The notes under the pieces were generated by a model. The model had not been told where the DNA came from. It did not search any database and saw only the letters and a list, made by a program, of their open reading frames with translations. Shown piece by piece: positions 1 through 28,117 of a stretch of DNA of 32,000 nucleotides. The stretch is taken from the NCBI GenBank assembly GCA_002716355.1, contig PBAU01000009.1, forward strand, positions 26,953 to 58,952, written 5' to 3'. This DNA comes from a bacterium. Lineage in GTDB: Bacteria > UBP7 > UBA6624. A program made the translations under genes and the position numbers. Numbering within the stretch: the first letter of the stretch is position 1; each line of letters opens with the position of its first letter.

Positions 1-1218
1 AGAGATCAGTTGCAAAGTCTAAATTGGAGCCATGATGTTGTGGATGTCTTCACATCACTAGAAAGAACTAATGATGTTTTTTATCTTGATGATGTAACCA
101 ATCATGGTTGGAGTTACATTGTTCTTTTGGAGAATCCTTTAAATGGGGACCCATGGGATTTAATGGATACGAATGAGTTAAAAGAAAAAAAATTAGGACC
201 TATGCCTTTTGTTGGAGGTTTAGTTGGCTGGCTTTCTTATGGATTAAACAAGGGTGAAAATTGGAACAATCCGAAAAAACACCCAAATCAACCATTGTTT
301 TCTCTTTTTGAAACTCGTTATCTTCTTTGTTTTCACAAGGATCATGGATGGTGGACTAATTCAATTTCAAGATTTAAAGATCTAAAAGTTCAAAAAAAAT
401 TGAAAAATACACCTTTTGGAAACATGTATCCATCAATTAGTTTTAATGAATATGTTAATGAAATCAACCTTATAAAGAAAATGATTACTAAAGGGGAGAT
501 GTATGAAGCAAATTTCACTTTCAAATTAAAAGGAGAGATGCAGGATAGTTTGGATTTGTATTTGAAATTTAGAGAAAATTGTAAAACAAGCTTATGTTGC
601 TTTGTGAAAAACCAGGATTTGATCATTGGTTCCGGATCCCCTGAACTTTTTTTGTCCTGTTCTGATGATTTTTATTTTTCTGAACCGATGAAAGGCACTG
701 CTGGTTTTTCTGGTGTTGATTTAGCTAATGACAAAAAAGAAAGAAGTGAATTGGCTATTGTTGTAGATCTAGTGAGAAATGATTTTTATAAATGTTGTAA
801 CTTTGATAGTGTAAATGTTTCTGATGAATCTTTAATTAAAGAATACCCAACACTTAAGCAGGCAGTTGCAAGAGTGTCTGGAACTAAACGTGACGGTGTT
901 AAAAAATGGGAAATGATTAAATCATTGTTACCTTCAGGTTCTGTTAGTGGTGCTCCAAGATCACGCGTTATTCCTCATCTTGATGCAGTCGAAAAGGGTT
1001 CTAGGGGTATTTACTGTGGTGCAATGGGCTGGTGGGCTTATGGCGGTGATTTTAAGCTTTCACTGCCTATTAGAACCTTTGTTGCTCATGGCAAGAATCT
1101 TGAATATAACGTTGGAAGTGGAATAACCTGGCGTAGCGATCCGGAAAAAGAATGGGAAGAATGCAAAATAAAAGCTAATTGTCTAAATGAATCCTTTAAA
1201 GGTGTGATTGCATGGTAA
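1..1218 (+). CDS. pabB: Aminodeoxychorismate synthase component I (PabB-type chorismate-binding enzyme). The frame is open to the window edge, so the 5' end may lie just upstream; the first candidate start is TTG at 10.
   Basis: Track ORF 10..1218. PMKGT motif (PabB-type Lys). C-terminal SGAPRSRV...EKGSRGIYCGAMGWW chorismate-binding signature. No stop between position 1 and 10 in this frame. 7-nt ATGGTAA overlap with the next gene. Confidence 0.75.
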   Translation, partial: RDQLQSLNWSHDVVDVFTSLERTNDVFYLDDVTNHGWSYIVLLENPLNGDPWDLMDTNELKEKKLGPMPFVGGLVGWLSYGLNKGENWNNPKKHPNQPLFSLFETRYLLCFHKDHGWWTNSISRFKDLKVQKKLKNTPFGNMYPSISFNEYVNEINLIKKMITKGEMYEANFTFKLKGEMQDSLDLYLKFRENCKTSLCCFVKNQDLIIGSGSPELFLSCSDDFYFSEPMKGTAGFSGVDLANDKKERSELAIVVDLVRNDFYKCCNFDSVNVSDESLIKEYPTLKQAVARVSGTKRDGVKKWEMIKSLLPSGSVSGAPRSRVIPHLDAVEKGSRGIYCGAMGWWAYGGDFKLSLPIRTFVAHGKNLEYNVGSGITWRSDPEKEWEECKIKANCLNESFKGVIAW

Positions 1219-1922
1219 ATTCTTTTATTTGGTCTGGTGATCATTGGAAAAAAGGCGATTTTGATTTTTTGTCGTTATCGGATAGAGAAGGTGTATATGA
1301 AACCTTTTTAATAAGGGATGGGTTAATTCAGAATAAAAATTTACATTTCGAAAGGTTTATTGCTGGATGTAGGTTTTTAAATTTACCAGAATCTTTAGGT
1401 CCTGATATACCTGAAAATTTAAATGGAGAGTGGACTTTAAGATGGGCCAGATGGCATGGCTGTCCTGCTGGAAATATTGCTCATTTATGGGAAGGCACCC
1501 TTCAGCCAAAAAAAAATCAAATAAATGTTGGATTGGTTTCAGTTAGAAGTGTTCCCAAAGTTCCAGAATTAAAAGTGAAACACCTTGCTTTGCTTAAGCG
1601 AGTCAAATTAAAACAAAGTCTAAAAAAAGAATATGGTTGGGATGATTACCTCATTGTCGATCAAGACAAGATTTTAGAAGGAAGTAATTGGGGTTTTATG
1701 ATTTTAATGAATGGGAAATGGATCATTCCGCATTTTAAAAAAGGTTTATTGCAAAGCACAACTTTAACAAAAATTTTAAATGAAGGTGAATTTGAAGGTG
1801 TTAATGTGGTTCAGGATGATATAAATTTATCTGATTTAAAAAAAGCTAATTCTCTAAAGGGTCCATCATCTTCAGGTTTCAGAAATTTAAATATAGTTTC
1901 GGACAAGGTTGTTGATTTTTAA
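1212..1922 (+). CDS. pabC: Aminodeoxychorismate lyase-like protein (class IV aminotransferase fold)
   Basis: N-terminal GVYETFLIRDG motif typical of the PabC/IlvE fold. Its start overlaps the pabB stop. At 236 aa it is slightly short for PabC. Confidence 0.6.
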   Translation: MVNSFIWSGDHWKKGDFDFLSLSDREGVYETFLIRDGLIQNKNLHFERFIAGCRFLNLPESLGPDIPENLNGEWTLRWARWHGCPAGNIAHLWEGTLQPKKNQINVGLVSVRSVPKVPELKVKHLALLKRVKLKQSLKKEYGWDDYLIVDQDKILEGSNWGFMILMNGKWIIPHFKKGLLQSTTLTKILNEGEFEGVNVVQDDINLSDLKKANSLKGPSSSGFRNLNIVSDKVVDF

Positions 1923-7464: not shown

Positions 7465-8016
7465 ATGATTTTTTTTACAATTATGATGTTTGCGATGGCT
7501 TTGGATTCAAAGATAAAAGAACCTGATTACACCATTCTGCAAAAGGAAAAAAATATAGAAATCAGAGAGTATTCTGAATATGTAATTGCCAGAACGTCTG
7601 TAATCAAAGACGAAAACAGGAGCGATAATGGAATGTTTATGATTCTTGCCAATTACATTTTCGGTGGAAACAAAAAGAAAGAAAGCATCGCTATGACTGC
7701 TCCAGTTATAACAAAAGAAAATGATGAATCTTACGACATGGTTTTCTTTATGCTTGATGTTGATGAGGTTGATGAGTTGCCGAATCCAGATAGCAAAAAT
7801 GTCCATTTGGAAAGAATGAACCTAGGTAAAACTGTTGCTATAAGGTTTGGATGGTGGGCAACAAGATGGAACATCGAAAGGAATAGGAGAATTTTAGAGC
7901 GTTATATTGAGGAAAATGATTTAGAGGTTGTTTCTGAGATGATGGTTGCTCAATACAATTCACCTTGGGATTGGCCATTTCTTAGGAGAAATGACGTTAT
8001 TTTTCAAATTAAATAA
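7465..8016 (+). CDS. SOUL/HEBP-family haem-binding protein
   Basis: EPDYTILQKEKNIEIREY...FMILANYIFGGNKKKESIAMTAPV matches the SOUL signature (E.P.Y.v....yE.R.Y ... F..L..YI.G.N....I.MT.PV). Confidence 0.75.
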   Translation: MIFFTIMMFAMALDSKIKEPDYTILQKEKNIEIREYSEYVIARTSVIKDENRSDNGMFMILANYIFGGNKKKESIAMTAPVITKENDESYDMVFFMLDVDEVDELPNPDSKNVHLERMNLGKTVAIRFGWWATRWNIERNRRILERYIEENDLEVVSEMMVAQYNSPWDWPFLRRNDVIFQIK

Positions 8017-9548: not shown

Positions 9549-10700
9549 TTAGATTCTTTTTGCAAATTCCATAAGATCTTTTTTGCTGGGTGCATCACTA
9601 TATACAGAGTTGACTGGTACAGGCTTCCTGCCACTTTCTTTTAATATTCGCATGAGGTTTGCTTGTGTAAACTCATTTGAAGAAAAGCCTCCAGCTTCTT
9701 TTGCGATTTCTTCATCAAGACTTGTACCACCAACATCATCAACTCCATAATGCAACAGAACCTGTGTCATTTTTGGACCTTGATATGTCCATAGTATTCT
9801 GATGTGCGGAAAATTATCTAAGTAAATTCTGCTTATTGCGCAAATTCTTGCGTCATAATGTCCCGTAGTAGCTCCTACCTCATCTTCAAATTCTGTATTA
9901 TCGGGAAGAAAGGCCAATGGTATCAAGGCGAGAAAACCATTCGTTTTATCCTGAGTTTTCCTCAAAAGGTCAAGATGATGAATGATTTCTTCTTTTGTCT
10001 CTATGTGGCCATAAAGCATTGTTGCATTGCTATTCATTCCAACCTTATGTGTAATCTCATGTATTTCAAGCCATTCCTCTCCAGTCTCTTTGTTTCTTGC
10101 AATAATTTGTCTTGGTCTTTCATGGAATATTTCCGCTCCACCGCCAGGAACAGAGTCAAGGCCCCATTTTTTAAATTTAACCAATAATTCTTCTGGGGTT
10201 ATTTTGCATAATTTTGCTATATATCTAATTTCTATTGCAGTGAAACCCTGTATAAACATATGAGGAGCTTTTCTTTTTATTGTTTGCAGAAATTCTTTGT
10301 AGTAATCGAGTTTTAATCTTGGTGTTATTCCGCCAACAATATGTATTTCCCAAATTCCATTGCGTACAGCCCAGTCAACTCTTTTTTCCAGTTCTTCTTT
10401 GTCGACAATATAGGATTCTTCATGCATTTTTTTAGGATTAAAAGGTCTTTTGAATGCACATAAGCCACAATCAAGTATGCATTCATTTGTATGGTTTATA
10501 TTTGAGGTGTTCCCATAAAATGATTTATTTCCCCATCTTTTTCTTCTTATGTAGTCAGCCATGATTCCCAATGCAGTCAAATCACCTTCTTTAATCAACC
10601 TGACACCTTCTTCATAAGTGATTCTTTCTCCTGATTTTATTTTCTCCCAAGCCCAATTGTCGGGATGGTTTTTTAATAGGATATCTGCTGTTTCAGGCAT
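9549..10700 (-). CDS. mqnE: Radical-SAM menaquinone (futalosine pathway) enzyme, most likely aminofutalosine synthase MqnE
   Basis: CILDCGLC CxxxCxxC cluster. GGAEIF and LALIPLAFLPDNT segments. Adjacent to ubiX/ubiA/ubiD homologues, as I recall for the Streptomyces SCO4494 family. I prefer ATG 10700 (MPETADIL, 8-nt ATGCCTGA overlap with the ubiX stop) over the track start at 10736. Confidence 0.65.
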   Translation of the reverse strand: MPETADILLKNHPDNWAWEKIKSGERITYEEGVRLIKEGDLTALGIMADYIRRKRWGNKSFYGNTSNINHTNECILDCGLCAFKRPFNPKKMHEESYIVDKEELEKRVDWAVRNGIWEIHIVGGITPRLKLDYYKEFLQTIKRKAPHMFIQGFTAIEIRYIAKLCKITPEELLVKFKKWGLDSVPGGGAEIFHERPRQIIARNKETGEEWLEIHEITHKVGMNSNATMLYGHIETKEEIIHHLDLLRKTQDKTNGFLALIPLAFLPDNTEFEDEVGATTGHYDARICAISRIYLDNFPHIRILWTYQGPKMTQVLLHYGVDDVGGTSLDEEIAKEAGGFSSNEFTQANLMRILKESGRKPVPVNSVYSDAPSKKDLMEFAKRI

Positions 10701-11316
10701 CTTGAAATTCCTTTGGAATTCCCCATTCAGGTACAAGCTTATTGTCTATGTTGAGTGAATCAAGAATGCGTGCAACAACACTATCTATTAGGTCCTGAAT
10801 GGTTTCAGCACCTTGGTAAAACGTTGGATTTGCATCTACGATAGTGGCCCCAGCTCTAGATACTTTTAACAAGTTGTCAAGATGAATTTGAGAAAGTGGT
10901 GTTTCTCTAGGAACAAGGATCAAAGGTCTTTTTTCCTTTAGTGTCACATCTGCCGCTCGATGAAGAAGGTTTGATGTTACTCCATTTGATATATGCCCTA
11001 AGGTTCCCATCGACATTGGAACAACGACCATGCCTCTGGTTCTATAGGTTCCGCTTGCTATAGTGGCTGACATATCCATCCCTGGATGCCATGTTAAATC
11101 AGTCCATTTTACATTTTTGCCATATTGTTCTTCGATGAATTTTTGTGGATTTTTACCAAAATTGAAATTCAATTCATGATTTAACAGATATTTTCCCCAT
11201 TTGCTTGTGACTATTTCAACTGGAATATCCCTTTTGACAAGTTCTTTAATCAATGTGTGAGCATACAGTGCTCCTGAAGCTCCAGTTATACCTACAATTA
11301 CAGGTAAATTTTTCAT
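10693..11316 (-). CDS. ubiX: UbiX-type flavin prenyltransferase (prFMN synthase; MqnM role)
   Basis: VGITGASGALYA N-terminus and RAADVTLKEKRPLILVPRETPLSQIHLDNL align closely with my recollection of E. coli UbiX. Confidence 0.9.
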   Translation of the reverse strand: MKNLPVIVGITGASGALYAHTLIKELVKRDIPVEIVTSKWGKYLLNHELNFNFGKNPQKFIEEQYGKNVKWTDLTWHPGMDMSATIASGTYRTRGMVVVPMSMGTLGHISNGVTSNLLHRAADVTLKEKRPLILVPRETPLSQIHLDNLLKVSRAGATIVDANPTFYQGAETIQDLIDSVVARILDSLNIDNKLVPEWGIPKEFQDA

Positions 11317-11936
11317 TAAGATATTTTATCTTCCTTCAGTGAAGATAGGATGTTTATTTTCTCCATAACTTCCTGGTCATGTATTCCAACTCTCACGCTT
11401 GTGAAAACATATGCAATCTTTCCTTCAGGGTTGACTATAAAAGTTATTCTTGATGCAAAGCCCAGGTCACCTAAAACTCCAAACTTTTGACTAATCTTCT
11501 TGTCAGAATCAGCAATAAGATCAAAAGGTAACTCCTTGTCTTTCTTGAATTTTCTTTGTGTTTTTAGATTATCTGTACTGATACCTAGTACATTAATATT
11601 TTTTTGATCAAAGTTAGAGTAACCGTCTCTCAAACTACATGACTGAGTTGTACATCCAGGGGTAAAAGATTTTGGGAAAAAATAAAGAACGCTCCAGTTG
11701 CCCTTAAGGTCTTCTGAGGTTATTGTTCCAGATGTTGATGAAGCTTCAAATTCAGGAATGCTTTCACCTATCTCTAAAATTTCCCGATCCATAAGCTCAC
11801 CTGGTTTCACAAAGGTATCATAAACAGCGATGCCAAATATAAATATTATGAAGATTAGCGCTTCCAAGCTGAAACCTTTGATTATTACTGGTAGGCCTTT
11901 TTTAACATTCGATAAGATTTTTTTCAAGTGATTCAT
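11316..11936 (-). CDS. bcp: Membrane-anchored peroxiredoxin of the Bcp/PrxQ type
   Basis: YFFPKSFTPGCTTQSCSLRD (PGCT...C Bcp motif). A Lys-rich N-terminus and one TM helix (LEALIFIIFIFGIAVY) precede the domain. I prefer ATG 11936 (ATGA overlap with the upstream stop) over the track start at 12017. Confidence 0.8.
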   Translation of the reverse strand: MNHLKKILSNVKKGLPVIIKGFSLEALIFIIFIFGIAVYDTFVKPGELMDREILEIGESIPEFEASSTSGTITSEDLKGNWSVLYFFPKSFTPGCTTQSCSLRDGYSNFDQKNINVLGISTDNLKTQRKFKKDKELPFDLIADSDKKISQKFGVLGDLGFASRITFIVNPEGKIAYVFTSVRVGIHDQEVMEKINILSSLKEDKIS

Positions 11937-13480
11937 TTTCCCTCTAAAATTTTCAACCTTTCTTCTTTTTGGCTGAAAAAGTTTTTTCTCAGCATGTATC
12001 TGTAGGGATTCTCCCATGAAACAAGCCAGCTTTGCATATTGATGTCGGCATTGAAGCCAGATTCATTTGAGTTTGGGTTTTCCTGAGGGTCATAAGGCTT
12101 TCCTTCATACAGGGCTTCATAAGTCATCAGCATGTTGCCCCTGTTTGGATTTTTGATTTCTATACTGAATGGAAGAACATCCCAGCCTGGACACCAATAG
12201 GCCCTTCCATAAGGCCATGTTCCAAATTGGTTAGGGACTACACCTTCGTTAGCAAGTTGATAACACCCTTCACCAGTGCCAGCTTTCGGGTCTTTTAATT
12301 CCCCCAAAATTTCACCATTGATGGAAAAGTGATGTGTATGATTGCAGAATTCAGCACAGTTTGCAACATCTCTTCCCCAACCGTGACCAGACATGATTCC
12401 GTTTATCGTGTATTTTTCAAATTGAGGATTTTCTAAAAGGTAAGGTTTTTTAGATGGGTTATATTCCAGATTGAAAGATCCTCCTGTCCACATCCTGTGG
12501 GCATTCATCGGTCTAAGTTTGCTATCATTTTTGGACAGGTAAATACGCATGTTCATTATGTAGGAGGAGTTTCCTGTGGGTACATTTATTTTGAATTTTT
12601 TAACCCCGCCTTCTTTAAAAAAAGCCAAGAAAGGGGTTATGTCAGTAAGCCAAACACCCCTCCTATGATATGTCGTAATCCATCTTGACATCAGGATATC
12701 ACACTTGTTCTCTTCGCAAAGGTGCAAATTTGCTATCATGTCCCATTCATAACAGTTTTTATCATTATTGTCAGGGCAGTTCATTTCAAAATAAATTTCC
12801 ATCTCGTTAAAGCTTAAAAGTTTTTGTGTTTTTGGAAACTCAACTTCAAACTCTGCATTTGCACCCCAGCCACCGCTTAACTCAAAACCATCAAGCATAA
12901 CCACTTCTTCCTTTTTGTCATTAAGCTTCATTTTTTTTGTTAATTCTTTTTCCCAGTAAAGGTATTGGATCTCTTTTTCAACTGCATCGAAAATCGGAGT
13001 AGGGCTTTTTCCTGGTGGTCGGAGAAGGCCAAATTGTCTTAGGTGACCATTTGAATCAATTAAGAATCCAGCTTTATCTGCACTCCATTCTTTTTCCCAT
13101 TCAGAAAGTATTAATTCAATGTTATCAGGCAAGACGGTATTATTTTTATTTATAAAATGTAAATATTTTTCCCAATCTGTGCCAATTACATTTTCTTTAA
13201 TTTCATTTAATCTTTGATCCGCTGATTCACCTGAAGCAATAAAGACTATGTTTGTTTTGGGTATTTCATCTATTAGTTCTTGAAAATTTGAACTCCAGAG
13301 GTTCTCCGTATAGGCATCCCCTTCTGTTAATTCAAGAAAGGCTATTATTTCATCTGAATCTTGAGTGTATGAAAATACTCCTTGATCAACTTGAAGTTCA
13401 AATGATTCTATTTTTTCAAAAGGTTTAACACCATTGAAAAATGACAACAGCATTAAACCCAATAAATATTTTTTTCTCAT
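11933..13480 (-). CDS. Secreted PNGase F-like (peptide-N4-glycanase F fold) protein with an unassigned ~230-aa N-terminal domain
   Basis: NCPDNNDKNCYEWD, NCAEFCNHTHHFSING and GCYQL...GRAYWCPGWDV parallel recalled PNGase F segments ECPNKTCDEWD, GCAEWCFRTHTIAINN and GCSANP...RAGWCPGMAV. ATG 13480 gives a signal peptide (MRKKYLLGLMLLSFF) and a TAATG overlap with the upstream gene. Confidence 0.7.
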   Translation of the reverse strand: MRKKYLLGLMLLSFFNGVKPFEKIESFELQVDQGVFSYTQDSDEIIAFLELTEGDAYTENLWSSNFQELIDEIPKTNIVFIASGESADQRLNEIKENVIGTDWEKYLHFINKNNTVLPDNIELILSEWEKEWSADKAGFLIDSNGHLRQFGLLRPPGKSPTPIFDAVEKEIQYLYWEKELTKKMKLNDKKEEVVMLDGFELSGGWGANAEFEVEFPKTQKLLSFNEMEIYFEMNCPDNNDKNCYEWDMIANLHLCEENKCDILMSRWITTYHRRGVWLTDITPFLAFFKEGGVKKFKINVPTGNSSYIMNMRIYLSKNDSKLRPMNAHRMWTGGSFNLEYNPSKKPYLLENPQFEKYTINGIMSGHGWGRDVANCAEFCNHTHHFSINGEILGELKDPKAGTGEGCYQLANEGVVPNQFGTWPYGRAYWCPGWDVLPFSIEIKNPNRGNMLMTYEALYEGKPYDPQENPNSNESGFNADINMQSWLVSWENPYRYMLRKNFFSQKEERLKILEGK

Positions 13481-15585
13481 TAATACAACCACTCCTTTTT
13501 AAATATTACCTTCCATGAGTCACCGGTTGATTCATCATTGGTATTTACAACTAGGTATGTTGCTTCTCCATCCTTGGGCCTGAATTCAAATCTAAAATAT
13601 GCATTAATTGCATCTGATAGATTGTTTTTTTGTACCGAAAGGCTGTAAAGATGGGATGATGTTGGGGTGTAGCCAAAATCAAATGAATATATTTCAGAGC
13701 TCGATGAGGAGCTGCCTCTTTTTACATTATTCATATTCCAGTTTGGCCCAAAAGAAAAATCATTTGTTATTTTGTAATTCAGCCACCCGTCAAGGCTCGT
13801 CTTGCTAGCATCATACCAATCTCCAGAATTGAAACCTCCACCCCATACCCATTTGTAATCATAGGCCCAGCCAAAATAGTTCAGACCGTAATCAACATAA
13901 TCATATTCACCTGCAGGTATTATTGTCCCAGGTAATGACCAAGGTTCAAAATCTTGATCCAAAACTGATTTGTACATTGTGATTTCAGGCCTCCATGACC
14001 ATCCATTACTCATAGATAAACCCAACGGTTCTATTCTTAGAGAGTTTTCTACAAGCTTGTTCGCTCCATTTGAAATTTCATTGAAGCTGATCTCATTTGA
14101 AATTTCCCTTATTTGATATTTTTCTTCACATTTTTTTTTCCAGAAATTTATACATTTTGATACATTTTCCGAATGTTCAATTTCAATTTTTTTAACTTTT
14201 ACTGAATCATTCAACGATGAGTATCTGTAATAGCCTAGGCCAGGGTCAAAATCTGCATCAAAAATCATATATTCGGCGGAGGCAGAAAGAGGATTTCCGA
14301 AGCTTTCTACTTTAAAATAATGGCCTTCTCCATCTTTATTTTCGCTTGATGAAAATTGTGACCATAAGTCAACATTCAACCTTGTCCCATTGTCGTTAAT
14401 CGACTTCCATGAAACATCTATGCCATTTGTCATGTTTGAAGAATTCGAATCTTCACTGGAGGAAATAAAACCTATATTTGTGTTGTCTGTTATTTGATGT
14501 TTTGTTCTTAGGATTGCAAAATGTTCATCAATTGAGTCTTCAACCCATGCTGTTAAAAAGCCAACCTCATTAATATCGAATTTCCCTGTGATTTTTGATC
14601 CAACTCTAAGTGGAAGCTGGTTTCCATTTTCATCTAAACCGATATTTCTGCTATGGAATGGAAGGGCTGAACCTTTGCTACCAAATGAAAAAAGTCCTGA
14701 ATTTTCTAAAAAGAAATCTCTTTTTTCAGGAAAAAACAAAGAGTAGCGAGTTAAGTTGCTTTGCTGTACATCTGCCTCAGCTTCTCCAAAATCAGCATTC
14801 AAAACTGATGCAATCCTCCATCCTTTCCATGGGGTGCCAATAATGTCTATTCCAACATCAGCCTTATAGTCCATCTCTGTTTCTTGAGTCGCTTTTCCAA
14901 GCATAAATGGTTTCATTATCCAAGGATTTGAACTGGGCAAATCATTCATTCCTGTTAATTCACCTCCTTTTGACAGTGTGTTAAGGCTATTGCTTTTTTC
15001 CCATCCTGTCCAATAGCCAGCTTCCCTTTCTTTTGAGTACCAGTATTTGAAATTTATTCCCCAGTTGTTATTATTCTCTGCATATGCAAGCGTTGAAAAA
15101 GGTATTTTTATTTCTGCACTCCATCCATCTTTTGTCAATGTGCCCATTCCTTCCCAATATCCATCCCAATCTTGATCTGGCCTGGATTCATTGGTTATCG
15201 TTCCATCAACCCTGCTTCCATTAGCATTAATGCCAAAATAGTAACCATTTCTTTTTGACAAATAAGGGTCTATAACAATTTCTATTTTGTCATCATTGTA
15301 GAGAGTTTGGTCCCTTTTTTTGTAATTGTTTATCAGCTTGTCAGTTTTTGCCTTATACCCTATATATAGATTTTCTTTATCTCTCCAGATGAAAATCCTT
15401 GCTTCAAGGGTGCCTTTTTCGCCTTCTTTTGGTTGTTGTTGAGTCCAATTTTGAATAATTGCTGCCTTGCTCCACACCTCTTCTTCGAGAATTCCATCAA
15501 TCTTCACGCTCTGCTGCATTGTTGGAGCGCTTATTGTTTTTGATGCAATCAAGATAAGTGAAATTAAAATTTTGTTTTTTTTCAT
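13480..15585 (-). CDS. Secreted CBM9-like (DOMON superfamily) domain protein with a large C-terminal DUF5916-type region, possibly a beta-barrel
   Basis: Signal peptide MKKNKILISLILIASKTISA. IDGILEEEVWSKAA...QQQPKEGEKGT...ENLYIGYKA matches the CBM9_1/DUF5916 family N-terminus. The C-terminal 450 aa is rich in alternating aromatic/Gly/Ser/Asn. Confidence 0.6.
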   Translation of the reverse strand: MKKNKILISLILIASKTISAPTMQQSVKIDGILEEEVWSKAAIIQNWTQQQPKEGEKGTLEARIFIWRDKENLYIGYKAKTDKLINNYKKRDQTLYNDDKIEIVIDPYLSKRNGYYFGINANGSRVDGTITNESRPDQDWDGYWEGMGTLTKDGWSAEIKIPFSTLAYAENNNNWGINFKYWYSKEREAGYWTGWEKSNSLNTLSKGGELTGMNDLPSSNPWIMKPFMLGKATQETEMDYKADVGIDIIGTPWKGWRIASVLNADFGEAEADVQQSNLTRYSLFFPEKRDFFLENSGLFSFGSKGSALPFHSRNIGLDENGNQLPLRVGSKITGKFDINEVGFLTAWVEDSIDEHFAILRTKHQITDNTNIGFISSSEDSNSSNMTNGIDVSWKSINDNGTRLNVDLWSQFSSSENKDGEGHYFKVESFGNPLSASAEYMIFDADFDPGLGYYRYSSLNDSVKVKKIEIEHSENVSKCINFWKKKCEEKYQIREISNEISFNEISNGANKLVENSLRIEPLGLSMSNGWSWRPEITMYKSVLDQDFEPWSLPGTIIPAGEYDYVDYGLNYFGWAYDYKWVWGGGFNSGDWYDASKTSLDGWLNYKITNDFSFGPNWNMNNVKRGSSSSSSEIYSFDFGYTPTSSHLYSLSVQKNNLSDAINAYFRFEFRPKDGEATYLVVNTNDESTGDSWKVIFKKEWLY

Positions 15586-16424
15586 ATCGTCATGAATGCT
15601 CCAAGAAGCAATAGTATGCTAATCCATCCATTTGCTGAGAAAAATGCAGCATTGATTCTTTCAATGTTATTGGCAGAAATTATTGAATGCTGCCACAATA
15701 GAAGAAAAAACATCAGAACGCAAGCAATAATCCAACCTTGAGACCAGTCAAAAGCAGACCCAAAAAGAAAAAACAGCAGTGCTGCGAAAAAATGCAGTAT
15801 GCGTGATACCGATATAGCTTTGTCTGCGCCATAAATTGCAGGAATTGAATAAAGTTTCATTTTTTTATCAAATTTAATATCTTGCAAGGAATAAAGTATA
15901 TCGAAGCCAGCAACCCAAAAAGTAACTGCTAGACATATCAGGTAGACCTTATCTCCCCATCCACCAGTTGCAGCAATGAATCCACCAGCTGGTGCACATG
16001 CAAGTGTTGCACCAAGCCAAAAATGACAAAACACACCCCATCTTTTGGTGAATGGATACATTGACAAAAGAAGGACTGCAATTGGCGCTAGTTGCCATGT
16101 TAAATCATTGAGGTTTTTTGCCGCATAGCCAAGAATCATCAAACTTGCGAAGACTAAAATCCAGACTGATTTTTTCTTAACGACACCAGTGACTAAACCC
16201 CAGTTTTTGCTTCTAGGATTTTTTTTATCGTAAGGGTAATCAATCAATCTATTAAGTCCCATTGCTGCTGTTCTTGCACCAATCATTGCGAAAAGGATAA
16301 GGCAGGTTGTTTTTACATCAGGATAATCCCTCAAACCCGCAATCAATCCAACAAATGCAAAAGGTAAAGCGAAAACGGTATGTTCAAACTTGATCAACTT
16401 TAGTATTGACGAAAAAGAATTCAT
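15582..16424 (-). CDS. mqnP: UbiA-family aromatic prenyltransferase (MqnP-type, proposed 1,4-dihydroxy-6-naphthoate polyprenyltransferase)
   Basis: NRLIDYPYDKKNPRS (N..xD...D..NPR motif) and multiple TM helices. Flanked by ubiD with a TAATG overlap. Confidence 0.8.
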   Translation of the reverse strand: MNSFSSILKLIKFEHTVFALPFAFVGLIAGLRDYPDVKTTCLILFAMIGARTAAMGLNRLIDYPYDKKNPRSKNWGLVTGVVKKKSVWILVFASLMILGYAAKNLNDLTWQLAPIAVLLLSMYPFTKRWGVFCHFWLGATLACAPAGGFIAATGGWGDKVYLICLAVTFWVAGFDILYSLQDIKFDKKMKLYSIPAIYGADKAISVSRILHFFAALLFFLFGSAFDWSQGWIIACVLMFFLLLWQHSIISANNIERINAAFFSANGWISILLLLGAFMTI

Positions 16425-17860
16425 TAATTATCTTTAATCTTTTTTAGGATTTCGTCAATTTTTTCTTGGTCTATGCCCACTTGTTCAGGCCATTCTCTTA
16501 TTGCTGATTCTCCTTCAATTTTCCTTGTACCATCAAAGCCTATTTTTGAACCAAATCCTTCAACAGGGCTTGCATGATCAAGCACGTCTACAGGGCCATT
16601 ATCCATCACAATATCTCTTTTTGGGTCAATATTAGACAAGGCATGAAAAGTTGTTTCACTTGGATTCTGGACATCAACATCTTCATCAACAACAACAATG
16701 AATTTTGTAAGACTCAACAAGCCAATTCCCCATATTGCATGTATAACTTTTCTTGCTTGGCCAGGATAGCTTTTCTTAATGCTCACAAGAAGCATATTGT
16801 GAAAAACACCTTCTGCGGGAAAGTGCATATCTTTAATCTCAGAACAGAAAAGCTTGACTAAAGGTAAAAAGATTCTTTCTGTTGCCCATCCTAAAAACCA
16901 ATCCTCCTGTAACGGCTTTCCAACAATTATGTGTGGAAAAATTGGTTTTTTTCGATGTGTTATTACTTCCAAGTGGAAAACCGGATAAGGTCCAGGGTGG
17001 CTATAAAAGCCTGTATGGTCTCCAAAAGGACCTTCCTCTTTCCTCTCGTCTGGATCTACCCATCCTTCTAGAATGAACTCAGCATGAGCAGGAACTTTGA
17101 TATCTGATGTTATACATTTAACCACTTCGACTGGTTTTTTGTTTAAGAATCCTGCTAAAAGGTATTCATCGATTCCCGGTGGAAGGGGGGCACTTGCGGA
17201 ATACATTGTTGCTGGGTCGCCACCAATCGCAATTGCAACAGGTATTTTTTCTTTTTTCTGGCTTGCTTTTACTTCATGCCTTTTACCATCTTTATGTAAT
17301 TGCCAATGCATGCCAAGTGTTTTTTTGTCATGTTTTTGAAGCCTATAAAGCCCCACGTTTCTTGAACCTGTTTCTGGGTCGTTTGTAATTGTGGATCCTA
17401 AACATATGTATGGTCCAGCATCTTTAGGCCAAAGTGTTGGTATGGGAAGTATGTCTAGATTCGCATCATCTCCTTTTAGCACAATTTCCTGACAAGGTGC
17501 TTTTTTTATTGTTTTTGGTATCAGTTGTTTACCCAGCTCAGCAAATTTTGGAAGCATGCCCATAGCGTCCAAGATTCCAGAAACCTTTGGAGGTTTCAGA
17601 AGTTGCTCAATTCTTTCTGAATGTTCGTTAATGTGTTTTACACCGAAAGCCTGAGATACGCGATCCTTGCTTCCAAAAAGATTGACTGCTAACGGAAAGT
17701 TGCTTCCTTTTATGTTTTCGAAGAGCAATGCTTCTTTGTTGTTCCTTGTGTAGTGCTCACCAATCACTGTAACTTCAATTTTTGGATCTATCTCCTCTGT
17801 GATCCTTTTTAGTTCATTCTTTTTTTCCAGATGTTTTATGTATTCAGATAAATTTTTCAT
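16424..17860 (-). CDS. mqnL: UbiD-family prFMN-dependent decarboxylase (MqnL-type)
   Basis: 478 aa with full-length UbiD-like organisation. Operonic with ubiA and ubiX homologues in a futalosine-pathway context. Confidence 0.85.
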   Translation of the reverse strand: MKNLSEYIKHLEKKNELKRITEEIDPKIEVTVIGEHYTRNNKEALLFENIKGSNFPLAVNLFGSKDRVSQAFGVKHINEHSERIEQLLKPPKVSGILDAMGMLPKFAELGKQLIPKTIKKAPCQEIVLKGDDANLDILPIPTLWPKDAGPYICLGSTITNDPETGSRNVGLYRLQKHDKKTLGMHWQLHKDGKRHEVKASQKKEKIPVAIAIGGDPATMYSASAPLPPGIDEYLLAGFLNKKPVEVVKCITSDIKVPAHAEFILEGWVDPDERKEEGPFGDHTGFYSHPGPYPVFHLEVITHRKKPIFPHIIVGKPLQEDWFLGWATERIFLPLVKLFCSEIKDMHFPAEGVFHNMLLVSIKKSYPGQARKVIHAIWGIGLLSLTKFIVVVDEDVDVQNPSETTFHALSNIDPKRDIVMDNGPVDVLDHASPVEGFGSKIGFDGTRKIEGESAIREWPEQVGIDQEKIDEILKKIKDN

Positions 17861-24680: not shown

Positions 24681-25270
24681 GATTGTTGGTTTTTAGTGAT
24701 GTTCATGTTGATTTGAATGCAGCTAAAAGGCTTGTAGAGCTTTCATCTTCTGTAGATATTGTCCTAGGTGCAGGCGATTTTTCATCAAACCATCAAGGGT
24801 TAGAAAAAACAATAAATGTATTATCGGGAATTAAAAAGCCTTTGCTTATGGTTCCTGGTAACAACGAATCTTTTCATGAGTTGTCACGAGTTTCTTCTCA
24901 GTTTGAAAATATGCAAGTGTTGCATGGCACAGGACTTTCGTTAAATGGATTTGATTTTTGGGGCTTGGGTGCTGGAGTTCCCGAGACTCCATGGGACTGG
25001 TCTTTTGATCTAAGTGAACATGAAGCGTTCTTGATGTTGGAGGGTTGTCCAGAAAAATCAATTTTGATAACCCATAGCCCACCTAAAGGGCATGTTGATA
25101 AAGCAGGCGGGAGCAATTTTGGAAGTGAATCAATTCTTGAATGTGTTAAAAAGAAAAAACCTTTATGGGTTTTTTGTGGACACATTCATGAGTGCTGGGA
25201 AAAAGAATCTTTTTTAGGTGGTACTAAAATTTTAAATTGTGGTCCTAATGGGCGGGTTATAGAGATATGA
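24677..25270 (+). CDS. Calcineurin-like metallophosphoesterase
   Basis: SDVH, GAGDF, PGNNE, THSPP and CGHIHE motifs in canonical order. ATGA overlaps on both sides. Confidence 0.75.
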   Translation: MRLLVFSDVHVDLNAAKRLVELSSSVDIVLGAGDFSSNHQGLEKTINVLSGIKKPLLMVPGNNESFHELSRVSSQFENMQVLHGTGLSLNGFDFWGLGAGVPETPWDWSFDLSEHEAFLMLEGCPEKSILITHSPPKGHVDKAGGSNFGSESILECVKKKKPLWVFCGHIHECWEKESFLGGTKILNCGPNGRVIEI

Positions 25271-26634
25271 TTTTTTTGCTTTTTTATTTGTTGAATCCGA
25301 TTACAGATTTTCTAGAAAAGCAAGAAAATCAACCCAATATTGTATTTATTATGGCTGATGATTTAGGGTTTGGGCACCTTGGATCTTACGGTCAAAAAAA
25401 GATAAAAACTCCAAATTTGGATATTTTGGCTAGTCAAGGATTAAGGTTTACACAGTTTTATTCTGGCTCAACAGTTTGTGGTCCGGCTAGAAGCACTTTG
25501 ATGACTGGTTATCATACTGGTCATACATCTGTCAGGGGCAATACTGGAGGTATACCTCTGCTCGATGAAGATGTTACTATTGCTGAAATATTGAAATCCA
25601 AAGGTTATAAAACCGGAATGTTTGGCAAGTGGGGTTTAGGTGATTTTGGAACAAGTGGCACTCCGGATAAGCAAGGTTTTGATGAGTATTTTGGATACTT
25701 GCATCAGGTGCATGCTCATTTTTATTATTCTGAATACCTTTGGGACAATGGAGAAAAGATGTTTTTAGATGGCAATCAAGATGGAAATAGAAACCAGTAC
25801 ACACATGACTTAATAACAGACAAGGCTCTTCAGTTTATTTCAGAAAGTTCAAAAAAACCATTTTTTCTATATGTTGGATACACAATTCCTCATACAGAAT
25901 TGCTTGTGCCTGAAGATTCTTTAAATGAATATTTAGGAGATTGGGATGAGCCTAATCCTTATGTTGGTCATCATTATGCTAGCCAACCTTATCCAAGATC
26001 TGCATTTGCTGGAATGGTTTCAAGAATGGATAGAGACGTGGGGAGAATTATGGATCTTCTTGATGAATTAAATTTAAGTAATGAGACAATCATCTTTTTT
26101 ACAAGTGACAATGGAGGTCAAGGGTTTGATGGACCCGATTTAGAGTTTTTTGATGGAAATGGTGGTTTAAGGGGTGGTAAACAAGATATGTACGAAGGAG
26201 GAATCAGGGTTCCCCTTATTGTAAGGTGGCCAGGAGTTATCAAAGAAGGATCTAAAAGCGATCACATTTGGGCTTTTTGGGACATCCTGCCAACAGTTGG
26301 GGATATCGTTGGAGCCTCTTGGTCTAATGAGATTGATGGTCTTTCTATGTATCCAGCATTATTAGGGGCAGCAGCACCAAAGCACGAGTATCTTTATTGG
26401 GAGTATGGCGGAGAGGGACATCTTAAACAGGCTGTAAGGATGGATGATTGGAAATATGTAAAGCATAGAGATGGAACAAGTGAGCTTTATAACCTTAAAA
26501 ATGATTTTTCCGAAAGTGATGATCTCTCAAAATTTTATCCTGAAATTATCATAATTATGGAAAATATATTAACCTCAGCAAGAACCCCTAGAAGGAAATA
26601 TGATCGGAAAGATATGACATTTGACTATAAATGA
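25267..26634 (+). CDS. Cys-type sulfatase (arylsulfatase / N-acetylgalactosamine-6-sulfatase-like)
   Basis: IVFIMADDLGFG and CGPARSTLMTG (C-x-P-x-R formylglycine motif), then GKWGLG and FFTSDNGG. Confidence 0.85.
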   Translation: MIFLLFYLLNPITDFLEKQENQPNIVFIMADDLGFGHLGSYGQKKIKTPNLDILASQGLRFTQFYSGSTVCGPARSTLMTGYHTGHTSVRGNTGGIPLLDEDVTIAEILKSKGYKTGMFGKWGLGDFGTSGTPDKQGFDEYFGYLHQVHAHFYYSEYLWDNGEKMFLDGNQDGNRNQYTHDLITDKALQFISESSKKPFFLYVGYTIPHTELLVPEDSLNEYLGDWDEPNPYVGHHYASQPYPRSAFAGMVSRMDRDVGRIMDLLDELNLSNETIIFFTSDNGGQGFDGPDLEFFDGNGGLRGGKQDMYEGGIRVPLIVRWPGVIKEGSKSDHIWAFWDILPTVGDIVGASWSNEIDGLSMYPALLGAAAPKHEYLYWEYGGEGHLKQAVRMDDWKYVKHRDGTSELYNLKNDFSESDDLSKFYPEIIIIMENILTSARTPRRKYDRKDMTFDYK

Positions 26635-26643
26635 TAATAGAAT
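26614..26643 (+). promoter_or_regulatory. Candidate sigma70-type promoter for tRNA-Asn
   Basis: ATGACA (26614-26619), an 18-nt spacer, then TAGAAT (26638-26643). The -10 box ends 12 nt before the tRNA 5' end. Confidence 0.4.
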
Positions 26644-26655
26644 CATATTCCGCGT

Positions 26656-26727
26656 TCCTCGGTAGCTCAGTGGTAGAGCGGATGGCTGTTAACCATTAGG
26701 TCGGGGGTTCAAATCCCTCCCGAGGAG
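26656..26727 (+). tRNA. tRNA-Asn: tRNA-Asn (anticodon GUU), CCA not encoded
   Basis: Hand-folded cloverleaf: acceptor TCCTCGG/CCGAGGA; D stem GCTC/GAGC; anticodon stem GATGG/CCATT with loop CTGTTAA; variable loop AGGTC; T stem GGGGG/CCCTC with loop TTCAAAT; discriminator G. Confidence 0.9.
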
Positions 26728-26737
26728 CGCTGGGTCT

Positions 26738-28117
26738 TTACCAAGGTCCAGTTATAGCTATTGTTTTTCCTGTCCATTGGGCATTTACAAAAAGTGTTGT
26801 TCCGTCATCCGAGAAACAGCTACCAGCAAGTTCTGTATCTTCGTTAAGATCTCCAATTTTATATATTTCGCCTTTTTTGTTTATTCCGATTATTGAAGAA
26901 TCTCCTCCAGCATCCTCACAACAGATCACATGTCCTTTTGGTGATATTGTTATATTGTCAGCATGTTGCAGTAATTCTTTGCTTGATGATTCAACAAACA
27001 GTTCCAATTTACCGTGCTCAAATTTTTCTTCAGGGGTTCCTTCATACCTGCTTGGTTTGTATTTAAAAATTTGACCTAATTGTTTTCTTCCCCCTTGTGT
27101 ACATGCAAAATAAATCTCATTATTTCCGTACCACATACCTTCTGATCTTGCAAATATAGCAGCTCCTTTTTCATGCATTTCATATCTCATTTTGTCTTCA
27201 TGGTTTTCTGGATTTTCAACATTTATCCAATAGGTTTCAATTTTTGTATTTTTGGGTATTGTATTTTTTGAATCTTTCCAATTTCTAGTATCGCTAATTC
27301 CTTTTTCTTTTATACATAAAGCTTGTAGCTTGCCACTGCTGAAATCTCCTTTTTTTTCAGGTATAAATCTATATATAAGGCCTTCAGGCCTATCTTCTGT
27401 TTGGTACACTATTCCTGTTTTTGGATCAACCGCTATAGCTTCATGTCTAAATCTACCCATAGCTTTTAACGGTTTAGGTATTGTTATTTGCATTTTTTTT
27501 GATGCAGGGACTTCAAAATTGTATCCATGATTTTTTTTCAAGCCTTCTTTGTCTTCATCATGTAGAGAGTAGCCTTTTTTTACTGTTACTTCCTCACATG
27601 TAATCCATGTGTTCCAGGGCGTTATACCTCCAGCACAATTTCGAAGTGTGCCTATTAGGCTTAAGGATTCTTGCAGTACTTTTTGTTTTTTAGTGTCGTA
27701 GATGATTGTTGAGGTGCCTCCAGTGCAAGGCATTCCTTTGATGCCTTGATCATAAAGTTTATTGGGATTGATTTTTGAATAAAGCGAATTTGTTTGTCCA
27801 AAAGGGCTTCTTGAAAAATCAGTAGGCAGATTTTCATGATTCCTGATTATTATGCTAATTCCATTTCCTCCAGAAAAAACACCCATTCCATCCATTGCCC
27901 CTGGAACTAGGAATCCATCATTCATAACTTTTCCAACTTCAGAAATGACCCTGTATGAGAAACCTTCGGGAAGATCAAGAATTCCCAAAGGGTCCTTTTT
28001 TAAAGCTCCATATATGGATGTTTTTTGTTTATTGAGATTTATGAAATGTTTTAATCCTGTCATTCCCGCAGAGATCACAAGCCCTGCTTTGATAAAATTT
28101 CTTCTAGTTAAATTCAT
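26738..28117 (-). CDS. Tat-exported PhoX/DUF839-family protein (putative phosphatase, beta-propeller)
   Basis: Twin-arginine leader MNLTRRNFIKAGLVISAG. GGITPWNTWITCEE, EDRPEG and FARSEGMWY segments are typical of DUF839/PhoX. Confidence 0.7.
   Translation of the reverse strand: MNLTRRNFIKAGLVISAGMTGLKHFINLNKQKTSIYGALKKDPLGILDLPEGFSYRVISEVGKVMNDGFLVPGAMDGMGVFSGGNGISIIIRNHENLPTDFSRSPFGQTNSLYSKINPNKLYDQGIKGMPCTGGTSTIIYDTKKQKVLQESLSLIGTLRNCAGGITPWNTWITCEEVTVKKGYSLHDEDKEGLKKNHGYNFEVPASKKMQITIPKPLKAMGRFRHEAIAVDPKTGIVYQTEDRPEGLIYRFIPEKKGDFSSGKLQALCIKEKGISDTRNWKDSKNTIPKNTKIETYWINVENPENHEDKMRYEMHEKGAAIFARSEGMWYGNNEIYFACTQGGRKQLGQIFKYKPSRYEGTPEEKFEHGKLELFVESSSKELLQHADNITISPKGHVICCEDAGGDSSIIGINKKGEIYKIGDLNEDTELAGSCFSDDGTTLFVNAQWTGKTIAITGPW

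Follow-up and report, generated by a model that had tools for sequence, protein, structure and literature searches.

The closest described relative of the protein reported here is Ngly2, the acid PNGase of fish eggs, whose zebrafish form was published in 2025 (9LWG; Honda et al., J Biol Chem; PMC12753239). Ngly2 consists of a domain of the thioredoxin-like (Tx-like) kind without CxxC, which serves in homodimerisation, a protease-associated (PA) domain inserted into the Tx-like domain, a linker helix and a PNGase domain; the PA domain forms one wall of the peptide cleft. Ngly2 is a proven PNGase: the D421 and E555 alanine mutants are inactive, and W480A leaves only feeble residual activity. The same paper mentions uncharacterised Ngly2 orthologs "even in some bacteria" and calls for their characterisation (PMC12753239). 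Here we describe a gene for a protein of this kind in a 32,000-nucleotide stretch of DNA, referred to as the window, from a bacterium of the GTDB lineage UBP7/UBA6624 (assembly GCA_002716355.1, contig PBAU01000009.1, positions 26,953 to 58,952 of the forward strand). The window protein is an uncharacterised addition to a known family, with an architecture already solved in Ngly2, and it represents no new class of system. That it belongs to the PNGase F superfamily with an Ngly2-type architecture is, in our judgement, nearly certain.

Architecture and active site of the window protein

The gene and its parts are as follows; the coordinates are those of the window.

11933..13480, minus strand: complete gene for a 515-amino-acid (aa) Ngly2-type PNGase F-family protein (list of open reading frames (ORFs), homology, ratio of nonsynonymous to synonymous substitution (dN/dS))
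13427..13480, minus strand: putative N-terminal anchor or Sec-type signal peptide, covering aa 1 to about 18, MRKK + YLLGLMLLSFF + NGV (hydropathy peak at aa 4-15)
13031..13408, minus strand: Cys-free Tx-like domain, aa about 25-150 (AlphaFold2 (AF2), Foldseek, profile match)
12920..12991, minus strand: linker helix, aa 164-187 (AF2; the same linker helix is present in Ngly2, PMC12753239)
12011..12913, minus strand: PNGase F-type double jelly-roll catalytic domain, aa about 190-490 (Foldseek, HMMER alignments)
12740..12745, minus strand: W246-D247 codons, D247 being the counterpart of the catalytic Asp in PNGase F (Asp60) and Ngly2 (Asp421) (alignments, codons checked)
12560..12586, minus strand: loop N299-V-P-T-G-N-S-S-Y307, at the position of PNGase F E118/W120 and of the Ngly2 W480 loop (profile alignments)
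12344..12358, minus strand: C375-A-E377-F-C379, E377 being the disulfide-flanked counterpart of the catalytic Glu in PNGase F (Glu206) and Ngly2 (Glu555) (alignments, codons checked)
12191..12205, minus strand: R426-A-Y-W429-C430, the counterpart of PNGase F R248, W251 and C252 (alignments)
11936..12010, minus strand: 25-aa C-terminal tail, aa 491-515 (confined to the window sub-clade)

Judged from its sequence, the window protein is a compact bacterial ortholog of Ngly2. In a search of the PDB sequences, zebrafish Ngly2 (9lwg_A) was matched at 4e-40 with the single sequence and at 9e-95 with a 19-sequence family profile, the profile reaching 2e-83 against the 9lwg_A PNGase domain. PNGase F of Elizabethkingia meningoseptica (1PNF, 1PGS, 3PMS) followed at about 1.4e-5 to 1.5e-5 with the single sequence and at 1.6e-18 with the profile. 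Of the two, Ngly2 is by far the nearer relative of the window protein, although its identity is only about 21% (about 19% for PNGase F). The original prediction, which had likened the protein to PNGase F, had named both Pfam N-glycanase models as a check; N-glycanase_C matched (2e-18, 66.9 bits against a cut-off of 25), but N-glycanase_N gave no match at E <= 1. Both jelly rolls are nevertheless covered by the profile and fold alignments. An AF2 model built from the family alignment (mean predicted local distance difference test score (pLDDT) 86.6, predicted TM-score 0.86) has strands across aa 190-490, and its top Foldseek match in the PDB was again 9lwg_A (E 5e-32, full-length TM-score 0.78, query-normalised). 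PNGase F (1pgs, 1png, 1pnf), itself built of two eight-stranded jelly rolls, was matched at about 5e-16 (1pgs 4.8e-16; TM-score 0.67-0.70, target-normalised). The type-II PNGases ranked after it, and the copper monooxygenase PHM was among the weaker matches, at about 1e-4. The Bacteroidota enzymes PNGF-II (4R4X), PNGase Bb (9VLA) and 7ZGN share the catalytic fold (Foldseek 1e-12 to 3e-10) and also have an extra N-terminal domain, but that domain is not thioredoxin-like; identity is 10-12%, and neither the single sequence nor the profile found a sequence-level match to them in the PDB search.

The window protein shares with Ngly2 the order of its parts, which runs from a Cys-free Tx-like domain through a linker helix to a double jelly roll of PNGase F type, whereas PNGase F has neither the Tx-like domain nor the linker helix. 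In the AF2 model strands and helices alternate in aa about 25-150, pLDDT is 91-96 across residues 21-130, and a 24-residue helix, 164-187, precedes the two jelly rolls. Foldseek matches for the N-terminal domain were of the thioredoxin fold (Sco 1xzo, GPX8 3cyn, DsbE 3gl3 and 4ka0), and the family profile aligned by sequence to the Ngly2 Tx-like domain at 4e-8. The earlier suggestion of a thioredoxin-like fold lacking CxxC, made for a first 230 or so residues said to be free of Cys, is thus confirmed, the first Cys being C235 and the Cys-free stretch comprising the N-terminal 234 residues. The domain cannot be called unassigned, as it then was, for it corresponds to the Ngly2 Tx-like domain described in 2025 (PMC12753239). 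Derivation of the Tx-like domain by duplication of the peroxiredoxin encoded next door was considered and rejected, sequence similarity being absent. The PA domain of Ngly2 is absent here: the window protein has no PF02225 match, and the profile alignment skips Ngly2 chain residues of about 199-339, the PA segment.

Residues were paired by counting along the HMMER alignments to 1PNF, and these alignments upheld all three motif pairings originally proposed, comprising the Cys pairs, Asp60 and Glu206. In the window protein W246-D247 corresponds to W59-D60 of PNGase F, C375-A-E377-F-C379 to C204-A-E206-W-C208, C235/C243 to C51/C56, C406/C430 to C231/C252, R426 to R248 and W429 to W251, so that the Asp60/Glu206/Arg248 site of PNGase F is represented by D247/E377/R426. 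D421/E555 of Ngly2 correspond to D247/E377 and H546 to H366, and the NC(A/G)EFC motif is common to the window protein and Ngly2. Conservation was counted in an alignment of 251 relatives. D247 is present in 247 of them (98%), W246 in 243, E377 in 248 (99%), R426 in 250 (99.6%) and H366 in 249, and W429, C375, C379, C406 and C430 are each found in all 251. All eight Cys of the protein lie within the PNGase domain, and overall they are conserved at 84-100%. The three PNGase F disulfides (51-56, 204-208 and 231-252) have aligned Cys, the pairing in the window protein being presumed from homology (C235 and C243 in 248-249 of the 251). The fourth pair, C255/C260, has no PNGase F counterpart and is kept in 210-222 of the 251; an extra Cys pair after the catalytic Asp is also found in Ngly2. 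Right after CAEFC the prokaryotic family has a near-invariant N380-H381-x-H383 (window 12332-12340, minus strand), of which PNGase F and Ngly2 share only H383.

Because the catalytic Asp, Glu and Arg and the Cys are conserved across the 251 relatives, the site looks functional rather than decayed, as had been proposed. The gene was also compared with its 90%-identical copy from another assembly (locus L004), which gave a dN of 0.050, a dS of 0.83 and a dN/dS of 0.06; it is intact and under strong purifying selection. It starts with an ATG at 13480 and ends with a TGA at 11933-11935, its coordinates are exactly those originally given, and its product, encoded on the minus strand, has 515 aa. 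An AAGGAG box precedes the ATG (AAGGAG-N-ATG), which overlaps the stop of the upstream gene in TAATG.

The resemblance to PNGase F does not extend to all of the sugar contacts. The catalytic and disulfide landmarks held, but R61, W191 and E118/W120 did not. At the position of R61 (H422 in Ngly2) the window protein has M248, where most relatives have Tyr and some Arg; at that of W191 it has H366, as Ngly2 has H546; and at that of W207 it has F378, Phe also being found in Ngly2. The E118/W120 loop is 2-3 residues shorter and Trp-free, and is still shorter in most relatives. The profile alignments place W120 within a stretch inserted relative to the family and pair W480 of Ngly2 with Ser/Thr. From Ngly2, too, the window protein differs in having a shorter W480 loop without a Trp equivalent, as well as in the change of H422 to Met. 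Columns 302-303 of the loop are gaps in 202-220 of the 251 relatives, and no conserved acidic residue or Trp is found at 299-303 in their alignment. The chitobiose-contact residues R61, E118, W120 and W191 of PNGase F are, then, not kept. Loss of the R61, E118 and W191 equivalents is compatible with activity because active Ngly2 also lacks these three. As read from the alignments, the catalytic machinery is intact and the sugar-binding subsite is remodelled; glycan specificity is therefore not readable from homology, and the standard chitobiose-core substrate is not assured.

The signal-like segment, whose cleavage site is putative, is short and Cys-free and lacks a lipobox Cys, unlike that of most homologs; a lipobox-like motif is present in 138 of the 234 family members that start with Met. 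In the family alignment the C-terminal tail is present only in the window protein and P0002, and within it AF2 predicts a helix at 492-501.

Occurrence of the family and of the operon setting

The original prediction had called such enzymes rare in bacteria, which is fair: a pattern scan with one genome per species gave 347 loci encoding a relative among 185,579 species genomes. A hidden Markov model (HMM) search of 1.84 billion cluster representatives gave 2,265 matches at E <= 1e-3, 492 of them at E <= 1e-30. The family is rare yet phylogenetically wide. Relatives occur in many metagenome-assembled genomes of Myxococcota and 'Deltaproteobacteria', in Marine Group II archaea (Poseidoniales), whose homologs are proteins of about 1050 aa, in Anaerolineae and in others. 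NCBI names relatives 'peptide-N-glycosidase F-related protein', and NCBIfam holds no model for the window protein. In a literature search no paper was found that connects PNGase F with Myxococcota or with Marine Group II archaea.

Several relatives are more elaborate than the window protein. P0040, P0082 and P0101 (Anaerolineae and others; e.g. L086:7001-9649) carry a PA domain (PF02225) ahead of the PNGase domain; a bacterial Tx-like/PA/PNGase protein has the full animal Ngly2 architecture, which bears on a possible bacterial origin of animal Ngly2. A subfamily with P0043, P0061 and the many HMM-search matches that fall in two stretches has a Cys-rich insertion of about 70-100 aa in the first jelly roll, between the strand of the catalytic Asp and an RWIT motif. 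The top cluster-representative match, P0121 (1392 aa), has four matched stretches; P0121 may hold more than one PNGase-like unit in one polypeptide.

In the window the gene lies in a translationally coupled operon of seven genes, of which the following six, with the PNGase-like gene, are the members.

9549..17860, minus strand: the operon as a whole (Pfam and NCBIfam assignments, junctions)
16424-17860, minus strand: UbiD-type menaquinone decarboxylase, MqnL-type (TIGR03701, 603 bits)
15582-16424, minus strand: MqnP-type (UbiA) prenyltransferase (Pfam/NCBIfam)
13480..15585, minus strand: upstream partner, a 701-aa protein with a CBM9-like domain and a predicted DUF5916 outer-membrane beta-barrel (Pfam, AF2, Foldseek)
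11316..11936, minus strand: downstream partner, an N-terminally membrane-anchored PrxQ/Bcp-type peroxiredoxin of 206 aa with PGCTTQSC (Pfam, NCBIfam)
10693-11316, minus strand: UbiX (Pfam/NCBIfam)
9549-10700, minus strand: MqnE-type radical SAM enzyme (Pfam/NCBIfam)

The six consecutive junctions overlap by 1-8 nucleotides (TAATG, ATGA, TAATG, ATGA, TAATG and ATGCCTGA), and neither internal promoters nor terminator-like sites within the operon were more numerous than in shuffled sequence. A few kb from the operon are the genes for MqnC and for a member of the MqnA/D family; the PNGase-like protein itself matches no Mqn family in Pfam or NCBIfam. The embedding of the gene in a quinone operon is thus as originally described. 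The unexpectedness then attached to it is weakened, the linkage being confined to one lineage, a sub-clade of which (L088) lacks the gene.

For a comparison of neighbourhoods 80 loci were fetched and their ORFs were clustered all against all. Linkage of the PNGase-like gene to the mqn operon was limited to L001-L008, where the CBM9/DUF5916 gene accompanies it. The same arrangement is found in four species-level relatives with 67-90% identity (L004-L007) and in a distant relative, P0003, with 41% identity (L002/L003). L002/L003 have the operon interrupted by a gene on the reverse strand and, as downstream partner, a thioredoxin (WCTLC) that is membrane-anchored. Orthology of the window PrxQ and the L003 thioredoxin was considered and rejected: the two show no similarity, and L088 has one of each. 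L088, the third sub-clade (Logan SRR20820740 contig, 10001-13933), was reached via the DUF5916 protein P0254 (37% identity; citrate synthase 64%). The same mqn operon is present there, and in it the same slot, which has no PNGase-like gene and is occupied by a CBM9/DUF5916 gene, a gene for a 140-aa thioredoxin with 33% identity to the L003 partner, an unassigned ORF of 157 aa and a 292-aa PrxQ gene. The notion that the small ORFs of L088 are remnants of a PNGase gene was rejected, similarity not being found. What stays constant in this island is the barrel protein together with the thiol-redox proteins; the PNGase is not among the constant parts. Gene order is kept across the three sub-clades (window, L002, L088) for citrate synthase, the mqn genes and a Band 7/SPFH pair, and the citrate synthase is 62-88% identical (88%, 64%, 62%) within the window lineage and at most 52% identical to anything else.

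Beyond this lineage the gene usually has its place on its own. No mqn, DUF5916 or peroxiredoxin homolog was found within 10 kb in about 50 fetched loci from other bacterial lineages, and among the 80 loci the clustering found no neighbour shared across lineages, with the sole exception of an MqnC/E-type radical SAM gene common to the window clade and the Marine Group II archaea. Five further annotated contexts have unrelated neighbours (GH31, alpha-2-macroglobulin, kinases, ABC transporters), the GH31 glycosidase adjoining the Myxococcales homolog P0005. In Marine Group II (L033-L083, e.g. L042:8402-12879) the MqnC-type gene is directly downstream in 17 of 22 loci; it is 36% identical to the window MqnC and is convergent, not co-transcribed. 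We treat this adjacency as lineage synteny, though it is a second independent juxtaposition with the futalosine pathway.

In sum, the PNGase-like gene is best read as one of the accessory genes in a variable envelope island that one deep lineage has inherited in the slot between mqnP and ubiX, and its odd place in the operon is most likely inherited gene order. A role for the protein in quinone biosynthesis was considered and set aside, given that the linkage is seen in one lineage only, that L088 lacks the gene and that the protein is predicted to be exported and disulfide-rich.

Proposed function and alternative explanations

We favour, with some reservation, the explanation that the protein is an exported PNGase which acts on Asn-glycan amide bonds in the scavenging of glycoproteins, its place in the operon reflecting the envelope island. 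The protein would be exported by the Sec route to the periplasm or cell surface of a diderm marine bacterium, would contain four disulfides, and may dimerise via its Tx-like domain as Ngly2 does; the signal-like segment, the lipobox-like motifs of the homologs and the conserved Cys at disulfide positions speak for export. The Asp247/Glu377/Arg426 site would hydrolyse the amide that joins an Asn side chain to the reducing-end sugar of an N-linked glycan, probably on unfolded glycopeptides or glycoproteins, releasing the free glycan and ammonia and converting Asn to Asp. Stripping of environmental glycoproteins in this way would open the peptide to proteases and the sugar to glycosidases, and binding or passage of the glycoconjugate may be a task of the CBM9-plus-barrel outer-membrane protein. 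This explanation builds on the observed fold, architecture, catalytic-residue conservation, purifying selection and envelope-type neighbours. The GH31 gene near P0005, as a glycan-related neighbour, and the CBM9/barrel protein and anchored PrxQ, as envelope partners, also speak for it. Several points weigh against it. Glycan contacts of PNGase F and Ngly2 are lost (R61/H422 to Met; the W120/W480 loop short and Trp-free); W480A nearly abolishes the activity of Ngly2, yet the window protein has no W480 equivalent, and it also lacks the PA domain that walls the Ngly2 peptide cleft. The tight translational coupling to the mqn genes is kept down to 41% identity, unlike what would be expected of a random insertion, and Marine Group II archaea also have the homolog beside mqnC.

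The changed sugar contacts raise the possibility that the chemistry is that of a PNGase and the substrate another one, such as glycans joined to Asn through other sugars (those of archaeal S-layer or bacterial pgl-type glycoproteins) or another glycosylamide conjugate met in the envelope or environment. The catalytic Asp, Glu and Arg are unchanged throughout, in contrast to the positions for sugar recognition, where M248 replaces R61 and the loop is short and Trp-free in nearly all of the 251 relatives; members of the family are frequent in Marine Group II archaea and predatory Myxococcota; and the PA domain, a wall of the peptide cleft in Ngly2, is missing from the window protein. On the other hand, the pocket-lining W246 (W59 of PNGase F), H366 (H546 of Ngly2) and W429 (W251), with an NQ motif, are conserved, characterised PNGase F-type enzymes tolerate varied loops, and direct evidence for any alternative substrate is absent. 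We regard a different substrate as possible though rather unlikely. The loss of the glycan-binding Trp loop would also suit a catalytically silent module that binds glycan or protein and retains the fold of PNGase F, comparable to 3KS7 and 4QHB, the 'putative PNGase F' structures from Bacteroides, and PNGase F-fold proteins not known as enzymes do appear among the Foldseek matches. A silent module is difficult to reconcile with an Asp/Glu/Arg triad in at least 98% of the 251 relatives, with the low dN/dS of 0.06 and with an active enzyme, Ngly2, as the closest characterised homolog, and we think it highly improbable.

A different kind of explanation takes the operon at face value. An envelope module tied to menaquinone or redox chemistry would be formed by the CBM9/DOMON-like barrel, by the protein itself, as a PHM-like double jelly roll joined to a Trx-like domain, and by the anchored thioredoxin or peroxiredoxin, co-transcription with mqn reflecting a shared process such as quinone-linked thiol/disulfide or oxidative envelope chemistry. 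The six overlapping junctions, which join the island to genes for UbiD, MqnP, UbiX and MqnE, are what such a module would lead one to expect, and relatives of 68% and 41% identity retain the arrangement. In every case a thiol-redox partner comes next, non-homologous though it is between sub-clades (PrxQ in one, WCTLC thioredoxin in the other); the archaea independently place the homolog beside mqnC; and PHM was among the weaker fold matches, at about 1e-4. Yet L088 keeps the operon, the barrel, the thioredoxin and PrxQ without the PNGase-like gene, and the roughly 50 loci from other lineages and the five further contexts have no mqn, DUF5916 or redox neighbour. The archaeal mqnC gene, 36% identical to that of the window, is convergent with the homolog and not co-transcribed with it. 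Moreover, the Trx-like domain is Cys-free, and conservation falls on the PNGase amidase site rather than on copper ligands of the PHM kind. A redox module is thus very unlikely. We also entertain a working envelope island in which a PNGase F-fold amidase acts on a non-canonical, possibly self-made or prokaryotic, Asn-linked glycoconjugate and, in its expression or chemistry, is coupled to the quinone/thiol redox status; this we think quite unlikely, and if it were true the juxtaposition of homolog and mqnC in Marine Group II would be a second trace of the same link.

Under the scavenging explanation that we favour, the presence of the family in Marine Group II archaea, Myxococcota and a deep marine lineage points to glycoprotein stripping in marine organic-matter turnover. 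A compact bacterial version without PA would be a test case for the role of the Tx-like domain and, lacking the Trp loop as well, could show how the substrate range changes when both are absent. It is also a possible reagent, a deglycosylation enzyme of different specificity or pH profile.

The partner genes and the rest of the window

The upstream partner matches Pfam CBM9_1 (2e-10) and DUF5916 (1.2e-5). In its AF2 model (pLDDT 81.7) a CBM9-like sandwich at the N-terminus leads into a large beta-barrel; in Foldseek the sandwich matched the CBM9 structure 7nwn (TM-score 0.74, target-normalised) and the barrel resembled LptD, TonB-dependent receptors and MtrB, because of which it is a predicted outer-membrane protein. 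It ends in ...KKEWLY. DUF5916 is a large family (more than 1,700 matches), for which the literature search found no paper and a sequence search no solved structure.

The downstream partner matches Pfam AhpC-TSA (1.5e-35) and the NCBIfam thioredoxin-dependent thiol peroxidase (3e-33), and its start overlaps the stop of the PNGase-like gene in ATGA. The PrxQ frame is open for 27 codons 5' of the likely start (ATG at 11936), overlapping the clade-specific 25-aa tail (window 11316-12017, minus strand); the short start appears to be the real one because the upstream frame is closed in L004 and 206 aa is also called in L001. Further genes of the window, in the regions 10-1922 (plus strand), 7465-8016 (plus strand) and 25267-28117, are those for a PabB/PabC-like combination of chorismate-binding enzyme and class IV aminotransferase, for a SOUL heme-binding protein, a PhoX phosphatase and a sulfatase, for a TldD/PmbA pair and for a bifunctional formiminotransferase-cyclodeaminase. 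Ngly2 is a lysosomal animal enzyme, whereas the protein described here belongs to a prokaryotic host and would be exported by Sec.

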